A DNA stretch of 64,000 bases, taken from positions 11,068 to 75,067 of the forward strand of contig JBBIRR010000015.1 of NCBI GenBank assembly GCA_037441705.1, written 5' to 3'. The notes beneath the pieces were generated by a model that was given only the letters and a program-made list of their open reading frames with translations, searched no databases and was not told the origin of the DNA. Position numbers and translations under genes: made by a program. Positions 41,785-47,441 of the stretch are shown piece after piece. Position 1 is the first letter of the stretch. Each line of letters begins with the position of its first letter. The DNA is from Ignavibacteriales bacterium (lineage in GTDB: Bacteria; Bacteroidota; Ignavibacteria; UBA10030; UBA6906).

Positions 41785-43914
41785 TCAGACGAGCAGCGGC
41801 GCAATCACCAGCGACACGACCGACATCAGTTTGATGAGAATGTTCATCGCGGGTCCGGACGTATCTTTGAACGGATCGCCCACCGTGTCGCCGACGACGG
41901 CGGCTTTGTGCGCGTCGGTTCCCTTCTTCTCACCGGCCACTTCACCTTTTTCGATCGCCTTCTTGGCATTATCCCACGCGCCGCCGGCATTGGCCATCAT
42001 CAAAGCAAGCAGAACGCCGGTGACGGTTGCGCCGGCGAGCATGCCGCCGAGGGCCGCCGGCCCCAGCAGAAATCCGACGGCAACAGGAGCCACGACTGCC
42101 GTAATGCCGGGCAGGATCATTTCACGCAATGCTGCTGCCGTTGAGATGTCCACACAGCGAGCGGCATCCGGCTTCGCGCCGGGCTTGCCTTCAAGCAGGC
42201 CGGGAATCTCACGGAACTGGCGCCGAATCTCATCCACCATCTTGCTTGCAGCCCGACCCACCGAGGTCATCGTCAGCGCCGCAATGAAGAAGGGAAGAAT
42301 CCCGCCGATGAACAAACCGATGACTACCGAGGGATTGGTCACGACGATTTGCAGCGGTGTCTCGCCTTCGGCAAGCAAGGTCGCATACCGTTTCCATTCG
42401 CCGACAGGCTCGATGCCCGCTGCGGTCATCTGTGCAACTTTCGAAGCGATCGCCGAGGAAACTGCCTGCGAGTATGCTGCAAACAGAGCAAGCGCCGTGA
42501 GTGCCGCTGAGCCGATCGCAAAGCCTTTGCCGATCGCGGCGGTAGTGTTTCCGAGCGCATCGAGACTATCGGTGATCTTGCGAACGTCCGGACCCAGACC
42601 CGACATTTCCGAGATGCCGCCGGCGTTATCGGCAATCGGGCCGTAGGCGTCGACAGACATCGTGATGCCGACCGTGGCAAGCATGCCGACTGCCGCGATA
42701 CCGATGCCGTACAATCCGGCAACGTCATTCGACACAAGAATCGCAACGCAAATCGCCAGCACCGGCAAGGCGGTTGATTCCAACCCCACGGCCAGTCCGC
42801 TGATGATATTGGTGGCCGATCCGGTTTTGCTGGCAAGCGAGATGCGCTTGACGGGACCCATCGAGGTGTAGTACTCGGTGATCAGGCCGATGAGAATGCC
42901 GGCAAGCGTTCCGAAGAACACAGCCCAGAAAACGTGGTTGCTCACGTCATATGCAGTAACAAGCCAGTACGCACCGAGAAGGAACAGTCCCGCTGCAATG
43001 AACGTAGAGTAGCGCAGCGCAGCTTGCGGCGAGTACTGCTTCAACACTTTCATCGAGGCGATGCCGGCGAACGACGAAACAAGACCTAACACGGCAAGGA
43101 CAATCGGCATGGACATCAGAATGGCTTTGATCGACGTGTCGGCAACCTCCGGCGTGGCTTTCAGATGGGCGAGCGCTTCGGGCAGCAGCGTTGCCCCGAT
43201 GGCGATGGTTGCGACGATGGAGCCGACGTAGGACTCGAAAATATCGGCGCCCATGCCGGCAACGTCTCCCACATTATCACCAACATTGTCCGCAATGACG
43301 CCGGGGTTGCGCGGGTCATCTTCGGGGATGTTGGCTTCGACTTTTCCGACAAGATCGGCGCCGACATCGGCAGCCTTTGTGTAGATACCGCCGCCAACAC
43401 GCGCAAACAACGCAATCGAACTCGCCCCCATCGCAAAGCCGTTGATGATGTTCGCGGTTTCCGGCTTGCCGTACAGCATGAAGAAGATGCCCACCCCGAT
43501 CAGTCCAAGACTGGCGACGCTCACGCCCATGACTGCACCGCCGTTGAACGCCGTCAGCAGCGCGGCGCCCTGACCATGTTCCTTGGCTGCTTGTGCCGTC
43601 CGGACGTTTGCACGCGTCGCAGCCTGCATGCCGAAAAATCCCGCGAGAACCGAACACAGCGCTCCGCTGATGAACGCCAGAGCTGTTGCTGGCGCAAGGA
43701 AGAAGCCCAGTAACAATGCAACAACAATCACGAAGAAGATGAGCACCATGTACTCGCGCTTCAGGAAGGCCATCGCCCCGATGTGAATTTGTCCGGCAAG
43801 ACTCTGCATCAGCTCATTGCCGGCAGGCTGCCGCTTCAACGAGAAGTAGATGGCAAACGCCACAAGAAGACCAACCGCGCCGGCTACGGGTGAGAATGAG
43901 GTAAGCATCTCCAT
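41785..43914 (-). CDS. hppA: Membrane-bound K+-dependent (probably Na+-translocating) pyrophosphatase
   Basis: [38 protein letters not shown] (Ala at the K+-dependence determinant) and [14 protein letters not shown]. Confidence 0.95.
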
Positions 43915-44075
43915 GTGAACAAAATCTCCTACGTTGATGATGGATACGTATCCTGCTCACGGCATGCGCTGACTGCTTCGCACGACCACCTGACTAAACC
44001 ACATGGGGTAACAGAGACGAAGAAGCCTTGAACGGGGGATAGCGTTTGCGCGAGCGGGACCAAATTTTCGTGACA

Positions 44076-44083
44076 CAAATATA
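44076..44083 (-). promoter_or_regulatory. Bacteroidota-type -7 promoter element (TATATTTG) upstream of hppA
   Basis: Matches TAnnTTTG. Similar sites lie upstream of other genes at 45377-45370 (-), 6349-6342 (-) and 36261-36268 (+). Confidence 0.55.
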
Positions 44084-44169
44084 GGAAAATCCCCGCACTC
44101 TTCCTATCACTTTCTTTGCACTGATACCATGAGCCGGGGCAGTACTTGCCCCGACTCTGTCCCGAACAA

Positions 44170-44292
44170 TCAGCCTAACAAAAGCTTCAGAACCACCAGC
44201 AGGACGGTAAGCCCGATGATGAATCCGAAGATGCCGAGAGCGACTCGGGTTCCGGACTGATATTCCGTCTTGCCGGAGTGTGGTTGTGACAT
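44170..44292 (-). CDS. 40-aa single-pass membrane protein
   Basis: MSQPHSGKTEYQSGTRVALGIFGFIIGLTVLLVVLKLLLG, with a strong RBS (GAAAGGAG) 7 nt before the ATG. Confidence 0.75.
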   Translation of the reverse strand: MSQPHSGKTEYQSGTRVALGIFGFIIGLTVLLVVLKLLLG

Positions 44293-44299
44293 GGGATTG

Positions 44300-44397
44300 C
44301 TCCTTTCATCGTTATTCACAAAAAGAAATAAACCGCCCGTCGTGGACGATGGGCGCATTGTTGCTTGCGGTGGATGAAAGGAGGTTACAGAAAGGAG
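44300..44397 (-). promoter_or_regulatory. Anti-SD/SD pairing with nested terminator-like hairpin (candidate attenuator)
   Basis: Perfect 11-bp inverted repeat 44300-44310/44373-44383 covers the SD. A second anti-SD lies at 44390-44397. An inner hairpin at 44334-44355 is followed on the - strand by a U-rich tract. Confidence 0.6.
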
Positions 44398-44732
44398 CTG
44401 GTGGTTTGCGTGTAGATGAGGTAACGGGGGATGAGCAGTCGGTCATGAAGGAAACACTTCACAATGGCGTGCGGCTCGAACAGGCTCCGAGGCGTGAGCC
44501 GATGCGGGAATATGCACTCCAGCGTGAGAGAACCCGGTGCCGCCTTCGTGTCGCGCTCGATCAGAATCGGAGTGAAGGTTGTTCCGCTGCTCAACTCGGC
44601 AATCTGCGCGGGAGCGGCTTTGCTCGACGGCAAAGACGTGTCGGGCGTATTTGCGATGCTGTGCGCAAGCCATAGCCAACTCAAGGCAAGCAGGAAAGCG
44701 ACCCGCGGTTGCTTCAACTTCATCATCCTCAT
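44385..44732 (-). CDS. Small hypothetical protein with Sec-type signal peptide (candidate leader peptide)
   Basis: MRMMKLKQPRVAFLLALSWLWLAHSIA signal-like N-terminus. Starts 4 nt after the stop of the upstream VTT gene. Confidence 0.55.
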   Translation of the reverse strand: MRMMKLKQPRVAFLLALSWLWLAHSIANTPDTSLPSSKAAPAQIAELSSGTTFTPILIERDTKAAPGSLTLECIFPHRLTPRSLFEPHAIVKCFLHDRLLIPRYLIYTQTTSSFL

Positions 44733-44736
44733 GTCG

Positions 44737-45339
44737 TCAAAAGAGATACTTGATGGCAAGAATGCCCAGAACGAACAGTACACCCAGAGCGAGGGTTAAG
44801 CGTTCGAGATACTTGTCGAGATATTCCTTCATCTTGGGACCGAAGAGGAAAAGAAATCCGCCGACGAGAAAGAACCGCGAGGCTCTCCCGACCAGGGAAG
44901 CGAGAGCGAGCGTGAGCAAGTCGATCGTCTGGTTGAACCCTGCTGCGATCGTGAAGACTTTGTAGGGAATAGGCGTGAAGCCTGCAACGATGATGGCCGT
45001 CCAGGCATTTTCCTGATACTTGTCCAGCACAAACTGAAACTTGTCGTGGAAGCCGTAGAAGTCGACGATCTTCGAGCCGATGGTTTCGTAGAAGGCGTAG
45101 CCGATGTAGTAGCCGAGAAACGCGCCTGAGACGGATCCGAGCGTACACACCAGTGCGTACCAAAACGCGCGTCGGGGGCGTGCAACGCCGAGGGCAATCA
45201 ACAGCACATCGGGAGGGATAGGAAAGAACGATGATTCAACGAACGCGATCCCGTACAGTGCCCAGGTGGCAAACGGCTTTGCGGCAAAGCTTTCCACCCA
45301 GGCTTTGAGGCCGTAAAGCAATGCGGATAGTTTCTTCAA
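44737..45339 (-). CDS. YqaA/DedA (VTT-domain) membrane protein
   Basis: AFVESSFFPIPPD, GSVSGAFLGYYIG, GFTPIPYKVFTIAAG and GRASRFF. TTG start. Confidence 0.9.
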   Translation of the reverse strand: MKKLSALLYGLKAWVESFAAKPFATWALYGIAFVESSFFPIPPDVLLIALGVARPRRAFWYALVCTLGSVSGAFLGYYIGYAFYETIGSKIVDFYGFHDKFQFVLDKYQENAWTAIIVAGFTPIPYKVFTIAAGFNQTIDLLTLALASLVGRASRFFLVGGFLFLFGPKMKEYLDKYLERLTLALGVLFVLGILAIKYLF

Positions 45340-45500
45340 TCAATTCCCTTGGACAGAAAACGAGCGGCACAAAGATAACCAAAAGGGGATGACGTTTCAA
45401 GCTTGGGGGTGTACGACGGAGGCTTGCGCCTTATGCCAAAAGCCTCTATCTTGACGGCGATTTTCTGTCCACCTTCATCACTCTTCTACCAGGAGCGTGC

Positions 45501-47441
45501 GTGATCAGAGTTTCTTCTCTTCTTGTTCTCATTACTCTTTTCCGTTGTTCACTCGCCGCACAGCCTTCGTCTCCACAGGTCACGTTCGAAGTCAAGACGC
45601 CATCGGTTGTTCTCACCGGTGTGAATTTCACTCTCGAAGTGATTGCGCGAGACTCCGCGGGGAATATCCATGCCGGGTTCAACGCAGAGGCGCAGCTTCA
45701 AGGCGCCGAGCGTGTTGCTTTGCCCGGGAAGGTTGCCCCTCCGCTTGTGTTCACAAAGGGCAAACTGCATATCGAGGATCTGACCATCGGCAGCGCAGGA
45801 GGGCACACCATCTCGGTTGCAACGCCATCCGGTGCAGTGTCCGCGACCGTCAGAGTTATTCCCGGCATTCTAAGTATCCTTCCTCCTCTGTGTGCGATTG
45901 TCCTCGCCTTGATTCTCCGTCAGGTTGTTATCTCGCTGTTTGCAGGCATCTATCTTGGCGCGGTTTTTCTTTTCGGGTATGACATCGTTGGAGGCATGTT
46001 CCGGGTGCTGGATCATTTCATCGTGAAGGCACTGTCGGAAACCAGTCACGTCCAGATTATTCTTTTCAGCATGATGTTTGGGGGGATGGTGGGTGTGATT
46101 GCGAAGAACGGCGGCACGGTGGGCATTGCGAACGTTATCACACGCTACGCACGAACGCCGCGCGGTGGACAGATTGCATCGTGGTTCATGGCCTTCGTTG
46201 TTTTCTTCGATGACTATGCCAACTGCCTTGTCCGCGGCAACCTGATGCGGCCGATTACGGATAAGCTTCGCATCTCGCGGGAGAAACTCTCCTTTATTGT
46301 TGATGCGGGCGCCGCAACGGTTGCCAGCGTCATGATCATATCCACGTGGATCGGATACGAAGTAGGCCTCATCGAACAGGGACTCAGGAGTATCAATTCG
46401 TCGGAAGATGCGTACGCCGTGTTTCTGCAAACCATCCCGTACAGATTCTATCCTATCTTCACTCTTGCTCTGGTTTTCCTCATCGGCTTCATGGATCGTG
46501 ACTTCGGGCCGATGCTAACGGCGGAACGCAGGGCTCGCACAACGGGCAAAGTCCTGCGGGATGGTGCGCAGCCTGCAACCGATCTCACAGAGTCCACGGT
46601 CTATGTTTCCACCGGCGACAAACCTGCACGATGGTACAACGGCTTCCTTCCCATCCTTACAATCCTCGCCGTAGGTCTTGTTGGTCTGTACACCACCGGA
46701 ACATCTGCGCTGGCGGCAGACGGGCGAACGAATTACGGTCTCGGCGACATCATCAGCAAGTCGGATTCGTATGCGTCGCTCCTGTGGGCGTCCCTTTCCG
46801 GTTGCCTCGTCGCCATCCTGCTGACGGTGAGCCAGCGGATCATGAAAATCACGGAGGCGATCGACGCATGGTTCAACGGGCTGAAATCCATGCTGCTGGC
46901 GATGATCATTCTCGTCCTGGCATGGTCCATTGGAGCTGTCACCGAGGAGTTGCAGACGGCAGGCTACCTTGTGCAGGTGCTGCGTGGGACGATCGCTCCG
47001 CATTGGCTGCCTGTGCTGGTGTTTGTGATCGCTGCTGTTGTGAGCTTTTCCACCGGCACGAGTTGGGGGACAATGGCCATTATGATGCCGCTGGTCATTC
47101 CGTTGGGCAGCACGTTGAGTGTCGACGCAGGACTCTCTCCATCCGATCAGACGATCATTCTTCATGGCGTCATCAGCTCGGTTCTTGCAGGAGCTGTGTT
47201 CGGCGACCACTGCTCGCCCATTTCCGACACCACTATCCTCAGTTCAATGGCCTCGGCCTGCGATCACATTGATCACGTGCGCACTCAGTTGCCCTATGCT
47301 TTGCTCGCAGCCGTGGTGGGCATGCTCGTCGGCGACATCCCAACGGCTTTCGGAGTGTCACCATGGATTTCAATCGCCTCAGGCATCATCATCCTTGTAC
47401 TCTTCTTGCGATTTGTAGGGAAGAGGGTTGGTGGTGAGTGA
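45501..47441 (+). CDS. Na+/H+ antiporter NhaC family protein with N-terminal extracytoplasmic Ig-like segment
   Basis: LSILPPL.AI, FFDDYAN, SREKL, STWIG, TGTSWGT and GDHCSPISDTTILSS. Signal peptide plus beta-rich N-terminal ~120 aa. Confidence 0.9.
   Translation: MIRVSSLLVLITLFRCSLAAQPSSPQVTFEVKTPSVVLTGVNFTLEVIARDSAGNIHAGFNAEAQLQGAERVALPGKVAPPLVFTKGKLHIEDLTIGSAGGHTISVATPSGAVSATVRVIPGILSILPPLCAIVLALILRQVVISLFAGIYLGAVFLFGYDIVGGMFRVLDHFIVKALSETSHVQIILFSMMFGGMVGVIAKNGGTVGIANVITRYARTPRGGQIASWFMAFVVFFDDYANCLVRGNLMRPITDKLRISREKLSFIVDAGAATVASVMIISTWIGYEVGLIEQGLRSINSSEDAYAVFLQTIPYRFYPIFTLALVFLIGFMDRDFGPMLTAERRARTTGKVLRDGAQPATDLTESTVYVSTGDKPARWYNGFLPILTILAVGLVGLYTTGTSALAADGRTNYGLGDIISKSDSYASLLWASLSGCLVAILLTVSQRIMKITEAIDAWFNGLKSMLLAMIILVLAWSIGAVTEELQTAGYLVQVLRGTIAPHWLPVLVFVIAAVVSFSTGTSWGTMAIMMPLVIPLGSTLSVDAGLSPSDQTIILHGVISSVLAGAVFGDHCSPISDTTILSSMASACDHIDHVRTQLPYALLAAVVGMLVGDIPTAFGVSPWISIASGIIILVLFLRFVGKRVGGE

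Follow-up and report, generated by a model that had tools for sequence, protein, structure and literature searches.

A 64,000-nucleotide stretch of the Ignavibacteriales contig JBBIRR010000015.1 (hereafter the window) carries on its minus strand two short open reading frames (ORFs), which lie between the gene for a DedA/VTT-family membrane protein and hppA, the gene for an H+-translocating pyrophosphatase (H+-PPase). The first, which we call the upstream ORF (uORF), begins 4 nt after the stop codon of the DedA/VTT gene and encodes a protein with an N-terminal localization signal and a conserved C-terminal tail. The second, here called the small ORF, encodes a short membrane protein and is separated from the uORF by 92 nt in the window and by 55-270 nt among the other loci described below. 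The Shine-Dalgarno (SD) region of the small ORF is complementary to an anti-SD segment just past the uORF stop, and the features of the locus are collected in Table 1. A first-pass annotation, made from the nucleotide letters, had proposed that the uORF is a secretion-coupled leader peptide controlling the small membrane protein. All of its coordinates were correct on the minus strand, including the uORF end (...YLIYTQTTSSFL, followed by the stop), both anti-SDs, the hairpin and the SD, and the position of the cassette between DedA/VTT and hppA was borne out by Pfam matches on both sides. Neither the uORF nor the small ORF matched a Pfam or NCBIfam family, and an Rfam scan of window positions 43000-46000 returned no family at E <= 1.

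Table 1. Features of the cassette and its flanking genes, in window coordinates
Feature	Coordinates	Strand	Sequence or remark
DedA/VTT-family membrane protein gene	45339..44737	-	Pfam VTT_dom, E 1.2e-08
uORF, 115 aa and stop TAA	44732..44385	-	MRMMKLKQPRVAFLLALSWLWLAHSIANTP...RYLIYTQTTSSFL, then stop
uORF N-terminal localization signal	44732..44664	-	n-region MRMMKLKQPR (+4), h-region VAFLLALSWLWLA, then HSIA/N
uORF conserved tail, last 15 codons	44432..44388	-	...IPRYLIYTQTTSSFL; candidate arrest or pause motif, abuts stop
First anti-SD-like copy	44397-44390	-	CTCCTTTC, within codons S-S-F-L; codon choice at this locus
uORF stop	44387-44385	-	TAA
Anti-SD, 5' arm of closing helix	44383-44373	-	CTCCTTTCATC; +2 to +12 past stop
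Inner GC-rich hairpin and T-run, terminator-like	44355-44320	-	fold and terminator scan
SD region, 3' arm of closing helix	44310-44300	-	GATGAAAGGAG; GGAG 7 nt before ATG
Small ORF, 40 aa	44292..44170	-	polar N-terminus, then one hydrophobic helix (MSQPHSGKTEYQSGTRVALGIFGFIIGLTVLLVVLKLLLG)
Strong 11-bp GC-rich hairpin directly 3' of small ORF	44157-44131	-	loop AGTAC, without T-run; by eye
H+-PPase gene (hppA)	43914..41785	-	Pfam H_PPase, E 1.3e-259

Conservation of the cassette and of the leader tail

Among 41 related genomes, a single-sequence query with the small protein found relatives in 15 (E < 0.01), and the uORF used in the same way found relatives in only three. The poor conservation of the uORF that this second figure suggested proved wrong, as profiles recover it. 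At 15 of the 16 loci retrieved with the small protein, an ORF of similar size lies just upstream and ends in the same C-terminal words (for example ...SHLVYTQTTSSHL, ...SYLIYTETTSSRL and ...RYLLYTLTTTSFL, each followed by a stop); the exception, L014, is in a region that contains N's. Homologs that share the YTQTTSS-like C-terminus, which the first-pass annotation had proposed to look for, are thus present at loci that were retrieved independently of it.

Of 277 genomes that belong to the same order, a full-length uORF profile (A2) matched 40, and a profile of the 30-residue tail (A4) matched 43, at 46 places. By family, the A4 matches fall in 24 of 67 genomes of f1 (plus the window's own genome), 6 of 44 of f5, 7 of 86 of f8, 3 of 55 of f7, 1 of 11 of f2 and 1 of 3 of f4. 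Three genomes (G003, G007 and G222) have two copies of the cassette each, and the copies differ in small-protein type or in their neighbors. Across 401 sampled genomes of the class, every credible match was within this one order. Eleven matches elsewhere were weaker (E 1e-3 to 5.5e-3) and were rejected as spurious because they had no motif-stop end, no signal and no small ORF behind them. Among 401 sampled genomes of the phylum, all 10 matches at E <= 5e-4 again fell in the same order, and a search with alignment A3 gave 13 pattern matches with one confirmed locus, from the same genus. The two genes travel together in a fixed order at all loci examined. Judged from these searches, the uORF and the small ORF are a conserved cassette of one order of uncultured Ignavibacteria.

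For all counts that follow we used 43 distinct loci (L001 and L025-L066), from which L024 was left out because it is identical to L033. Since these loci were collected with a uORF profile, the presence of the motif in all 43 is partly by construction, and the count free of this bias is the 15 of 16 given above. Three later finds that look similar (L079, L081 and L082) stand outside the statistics. In one of them, L079 (G193:C8), the tail is preceded by no more than 27 open codons of the uORF frame and a small single-helix ORF still follows; a frameshift may be the cause, or the locus may be a pseudogene or carry a short form.

The tail has the consensus ...HL[VLI]YT[QL]TTSSxL and its motif ends at the stop codon in 43/43 loci, which places it directly before the stop, as in termination-stage arrest peptides of the NSP-stop, NAP-stop and TnaC type. 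Counting back from the last residue, position -1 is Leu in 42 loci and Phe in one, -2 is variable, and -3 is Ser in 40 and Thr in two. Further inward, the most frequent residues are Ser at -4 (34/43), Thr at -5 (36), -6 (34) and -8 (35), Gln or Leu at -7 (29 and 11), Tyr at -9 (38), Val, Leu or Ile at -10 (41), Leu at -11 (36), His, Leu or Tyr at -12 (20, 7 and 6) and Leu at -15 (30). The final three residues read [S/T]-x-L in 41 loci. This ending fits the rule for class I PDZ-binding C-termini, Ser or Thr at -3 and a hydrophobic last residue, with Ser or Thr at -3 in 42 of the 43. The uORF itself closes with TAA in 20 loci, TGA in 16 and TAG in seven. All four Thr codons occur in the tail, Leu is encoded by both CTN and TTR and Ser by both AGY and TCN, and the Ser at -4 is specified across loci by AGC, AGT, TCT, TCG, TCC and TCA. 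Because synonymous codons are used this freely, the constraint is on the peptide and not on an RNA element, and the codon usage indicates that the tail is under peptide-level selection. The anti-SD-like copy within the last uORF codons, which had been described as part of the switch, is specific to this genome's codons and is not kept in relatives.

The remainder of the uORF is constrained in its architecture. Its n-region has a net positive charge in 43/43 loci, and 42 have a hydrophobic 12-mer with a Kyte-Doolittle (KD) value of at least 2.0. In many uORFs, small-x-small residues resembling signal peptidase sites can be seen by eye behind the h-region. We assigned the signal by charge and KD hydropathy, and the cleavage site in Table 1 was read by eye. 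Predicted uORF lengths run from 101 to 123 aa (median 117), and every one of the 43 has 84-95 aa (median 89) between the end of its hydrophobic segment and its C-terminus, where the search would have tolerated 45 to ~120 aa. The spacer sequence is not conserved (mean column identity 28%). AlphaFold2, run on a 15-row alignment, gave a confident helix at residues 9-27 (predicted local confidence, pLDDT, 83-92), with pLDDT ~50 for the remaining 85 residues and a predicted overall score (pTM) of 0.26; since the alignment is shallow, this low confidence is weak evidence of disorder. Outside its tail, the uORF therefore looks like a signal followed by a putative "ruler" of fixed length.

The two ORFs also differ in their start signals. 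The small ORFs have an SD-like motif, but only 6/43 uORFs do. A -10-like hexamer (TATCTT or TATATT) stands no more than 30 nt ahead of the uORF start in 16/43 loci, compared to 8% of background windows. This hexamer and the scarcity of SD-like motifs suggest that uORF mRNAs are near-leaderless, with very short leaders. In L026, L035, L037, L039, L040, L048, L050, L064 and others, the hexamer ends 7-16 nt ahead of the uORF ATG. In the window's genome, whose 16S rRNA has the canonical anti-SD tail, an SD core stands at -20..-5 of 26% of 2968 crude long ORFs compared to 11% of random 16-mers. The strong SD of the microprotein gene is thus a minority feature in its host.

Base pairing between the end of the leader and the downstream SD

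In the minimum-free-energy (MFE) fold of positions 44420-44280, the 11-nt anti-SD and the SD form a helix around the inner hairpin, as had been predicted by the first-pass annotation. Its energy is -30.8 kcal/mol, compared to -22.1 +/- 3.3 for shuffled sequences (z -2.68), and 3/200 shuffles folded as well. The anti-SD copy that pairs in this fold is the second, past the stop, and not the first. Taken by itself, the duplex with the SD region is -17.4 kcal/mol, with 11 pairs and perfect complementarity. In the ensemble the probability that the SD is paired is 1.00, and 96% of the partner probability lies adjacent to the stop codon. It is mainly the relatives that set this helix apart from chance, as their stop-adjacent segments fit their own SD over those of other loci.

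Covariation between the two arms can be followed by eye. Where the window pairs CTCCTTTCATC with GATGAAAGGAG, the corresponding arm and SD are TTCTTCCTT and AAGGAAGAA in L033, CTTTCCTTT and AAAGGAAAG in L029, CCCT..TTGTTC and GAACAA..AGGG in L028, and TACCCTCTC..GAGC and GCTC..GAGAGAGGTA in L050. We quantified the fit with an alignment-free test, which takes for each locus the best duplex between the segment from stop-9 to stop+25 and the segment from start-22 to start+3. The mean cognate duplex is -13.17 kcal/mol and permuted pairings give -9.35 +/- 0.38 (z -10.2), with the cognate mean reached by 0/20000 permutations. Ranked against the arms of all 43 loci, the cognate arm comes first in 11 loci and within the top three in 18, compared to a chance expectation of about three. 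Compared to other 37-nt segments of the same locus, it falls in the best 5% in 16/43 loci and in the best 1% in eight. The covarying anti-SD and SD anticipated by the first-pass annotation are therefore found, with about half of the loci not clear.

In strongly paired loci the first base of the 5' arm falls at +1 to +3 past the stop or still within the last codons. In 32/43 loci, including loci with spacers of 150-220 nt, partition-function folds of the full spacer gave over half of the SD pairing probability to the segment from stop-6 to stop+30. These comparisons indicate that the arm masking the SD is specific to its locus and begins at the stop codon.

A candidate pause at the stop codon and the alternatives

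We propose that the cassette is a two-cistron switch, in which the uORF is a putative SecM/VemP-like arrest or pause leader that acts at its stop codon and unmasks the transporter-associated microprotein, and we judge the chances of this proposal to be about even. In free mRNA, the bases 2-3 nt after the uORF stop would pair with the microprotein SD and block its translation. A ribosome on the last uORF codons or on the stop would cover and melt the arm, and the SD would be freed. As a ribosome with a stop codon in the A site covers ~10-12 nt downstream, one that stands at the uORF stop must open most of the arm. The tail would at that moment occupy the exit tunnel, where it is a candidate proline-free arrest or pause motif that would prolong the ribosome's stay. 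With the signal held at 84-95 aa from the stop, Sec-dependent export would pull on the chain and end the pause, such that output would rise when export, or the membrane energization that export needs, is poor. If the tail does arrest the ribosome and export does relieve the arrest, a single mechanism would account for the tail and the ruler together with the signal and the placement of the helix. Stalling by the tail, its relief by export and the nature of the physiological signal are what we infer here.

SecM, VemP and MifM are regulatory arrest peptides that control secA, secDF2 and yidC2. The cassette resembles them in its N-terminal export or insertion signal, its unconserved spacer and its conserved C-terminal segment. 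As in those systems, the next SD is sequestered by a 5' arm that lies where the ribosome sits at the end of the leader, a feature that is clear in about half of the loci, and the phylogenetic distribution is patchy. Unlike them, the cassette has a motif that runs to the stop, and its output is a 40-aa membrane protein rather than Sec or YidC. There is also no sequence similarity, and the tail is without an R-A-G-P or RAPP-like element. A language-model comparison of the uORF gave SecM_small (0.92, weak) and KhtS as leads. The first-pass annotation had already remarked that the tail matches no recognized arrest motif, and this held: proline is absent from the tail, and there is no likeness to a known arrest motif. 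To our knowledge, every secretion or insertion monitor described so far regulates Sec or YidC by feedback, and the arrest motifs are with few exceptions rich in Pro or Gly.

A published screen gives criteria against which the secretion-monitor reading can be set. In Fujiwara et al. 2024 (PMC10987492), monitoring substrates were sought by (i) a position upstream of sec or yidC, (ii) an N-terminal signal or transmembrane segment, (iii) a conserved C-terminus and (iv) a spacer of >30 residues. The uORF shows the last three, with its signal, its conserved end and its spacer of 84-95 aa, and departs from the first, since the next gene encodes no Sec or YidC component. The secretion-monitor reading of the first-pass annotation is supported in part. 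No sec or yidC gene lies directly after the uORF at these loci, and the sole SecD/F gene seen is on the opposite strand, at L058. According to that paper, the domain-wide screen examined only regions upstream of secA, secDF and yidC, and toeprints of the NSP-stop, NAP-stop and DGMK-stop motifs placed the stop codon in the A site, NSP-stop and NAP-stop being from Bacteroidota (PMC10987492). As described there, these motifs are like the uORF in abutting the stop, in belonging to the same phylum (Bacteroidota as defined by GTDB) and in being paired with a localization signal. They precede secA or secDF and end in Pro or DGMK, whereas the uORF ends in S-S-x-L before any of the stops and has a different output; none of the 43 loci has a C-terminal proline, as in NSP and NAP, at its last residue. 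Literature searches for the YTQTTSS motif, for Ignavibacteria together with arrest peptides, for monitoring substrates together with DedA and for SGM_5486 found nothing in the collection of papers covered. The supplements of PMC10987492 list Ignavibacteria genomes, and 'TQTTSS' was not found in the files covered, two of them in part. We suggest that the cassette works like a monitoring substrate but would lie outside any described family, with a motif and a kind of output that appear to be new.

A more specific version, which we advance only tentatively, is that the candidate proline-free motif stalls termination with any release factor, and that the leader monitors export or energization on behalf of transporter-associated microproteins and possibly of the neighboring pump or transporter genes. 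If true, this would be the first monitoring substrate tied to membrane energetics and transport instead of Sec or YidC, with a ruler of ~89 residues. It would also bring a new arrest chemistry, that of a Thr/Ser-rich, proline-free tail at any stop codon, and a new class of regulated output, microproteins beside DedA, H+-PPase and secondary transporters.

Several points weigh against a switch of this kind. The tail is without proline, and because all three stop codons are used, a stall could not depend on which release factor acts. An S-x-L sequence at the extreme C-terminus is what a class I PDZ ligand would show, and the tail could then be accounted for without any stalling. The gene under control does not encode a part of the translocon, as the first of the published criteria would ask. 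On the RNA side, the stop-adjacent helix is clearly above chance in only ~16-20/43 loci, the predicted SD partner lies elsewhere in 11/43, and SD pairing per se is not above the shuffle control (0.83 vs 0.74, isolated folds). In addition, the loci are related and not independent, so the statistics overstate the evidence.

The alternative that fares best is plain translational coupling without programmed arrest, which we consider a possible but rather doubtful account of the cassette as a whole. Here the uORF product would be an exported or membrane-anchored protein whose tail works after export. Its S-x-L-COOH end would dock by beta-augmentation on a PDZ-type protease or other partner, or would close a length-constrained tether, and the stop-adjacent helix would tie synthesis of the small protein to uORF translation and in proportion to it. 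The [S/T]-x-L ending of 41/43 loci agrees with the class I PDZ-ligand rule, beta-branched residues are frequent in the tail, and a fixed spacer of 84-95 aa is likewise compatible with a tether or ruler. The two genes are always together, and a helix at the stop, with the downstream SD paired to the end of the upstream frame, is what structure-mediated coupling requires. Such coupling nevertheless leaves unexplained the conserved peptide tail, the fixed distance from signal to stop and the export signal. Some 90 residues without conserved sequence or predicted fold would be unusual for a functional exported protein. Furthermore, a terminating ribosome covers the arm only briefly, and unmasking an SD that is 55-270 nt away would probably be inefficient without a pause. 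If only coupling operates, the cassette still comprises two conserved small-protein families of Ignavibacteria that are unannotated, and clear locus-specific masking of an SD.

The two remaining readings agree badly with the comparative data. A type I toxin-like module, with a 40-aa membrane toxin, a sequestered SD and the uORF in a mok-like role as in hok/mok/sok, is quite unlikely: it shares with hok/mok the small single-helix hydrophobic peptide, the masked SD and translation that depends on an upstream frame, but the cassette is kept at syntenic chromosomal sites beside DedA, H+-PPase and permease genes across the order, the sequence of its small protein is conserved over families, and its uORF encodes an exported 115-aa protein with an export signal and ends 55-270 nt upstream of the small ORF without overlapping it. 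A transcription attenuator, in which the inner hairpin and T-run terminate before the small ORF unless the leader ribosome prevents it, is most improbable: the terminator-like hairpin with its U-tract, which the first-pass annotation had pointed out, is real in the window at 44355-44320, but it occurs between uORF and small ORF in 3/43 loci only (the window, L049 and L063) and may be a lineage-specific add-on, it starts ~30 nt past the uORF stop and so is out of reach of a ribosome there, and the fold shows no evident alternative anti-terminator pairing. Given its presence in these three loci alone, transcription attenuation is not the conserved mechanism and at most a local addition.

Small-protein output and gene neighborhood

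The small proteins share the consensus QSGxKVAxGIxGFIxGLxxLLxxLK (alignment A1), and by profile the ORF that follows the uORF is of this type in 31/43 loci. In 11/43 it is another single-helix protein of 37-49 aa, which in L062 is MetS-like, and in 1/43 (L053) an amino-acid-permease-like gene comes directly after the uORF. Extra small ORFs of an MTxSAWITM...YFFLKVL type flank the cassette in L034 (G021) and L062 (G136). One of them adjoins SNF and H+-PPase genes, and in L062 this type replaces the usual microprotein. We take these ORFs to resemble MetS, the small subunit of NSS transporters.

A functional lead for the small protein is the SGM_5486 family (NF040912), whose members likewise have 37-40 aa and one helix and lie beside transporter genes. 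The language-model similarity between the two is 0.89, with 175-176 shared features. The NF040912 profile gave no match to the window protein and weak matches to 3/16 relatives (best E 0.0069), under the 35-bit cut-off, and a genome-wide search with NF040912 did not find the small ORF in the window's genome. The likeness is thus a weak functional lead and does not amount to membership.

Membrane transport genes surround the cassette at many loci. By Pfam, the codirectional downstream neighbors at the 43 loci are H+-PPase in eight, amino-acid permease in five, DedA/VTT in four (with 2-4 more by eye), and SNF, TRAP DctQ and a periplasmic binding protein in one each. Codirectional upstream neighbors are DedA/VTT in 10, H+-PPase and SNF in two each and MFS in one. 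A polytopic transporter or pump is the immediate Pfam neighbor in 27/43. In genus members without the cassette (L101/G009, L102/G005 and L103/G010), DedA is followed by an SNF transporter or by a second-type H+-PPase, and since the DedA-pump adjacency persists there, the cassette is an optional insert.

In four loci there is almost no gap between the small ORF and the next membrane-protein gene, and the two may therefore be co-expressed. For the window, co-expression of the small ORF with the H+-PPase gene is doubtful, because the two are 255 nt apart and a hairpin follows the small ORF. This hairpin (44157-44131) may be the 3' end of the transcript, a terminator without U-tract or a stabilizer that separates the cassette from hppA. 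Within the 255-nt gap upstream of hppA, at 44076-44083 on the minus strand, lies TATATTTG, which fits the Bacteroidetes-type -7 promoter element TAnnTTTG, and this match hints that hppA has its own promoter.

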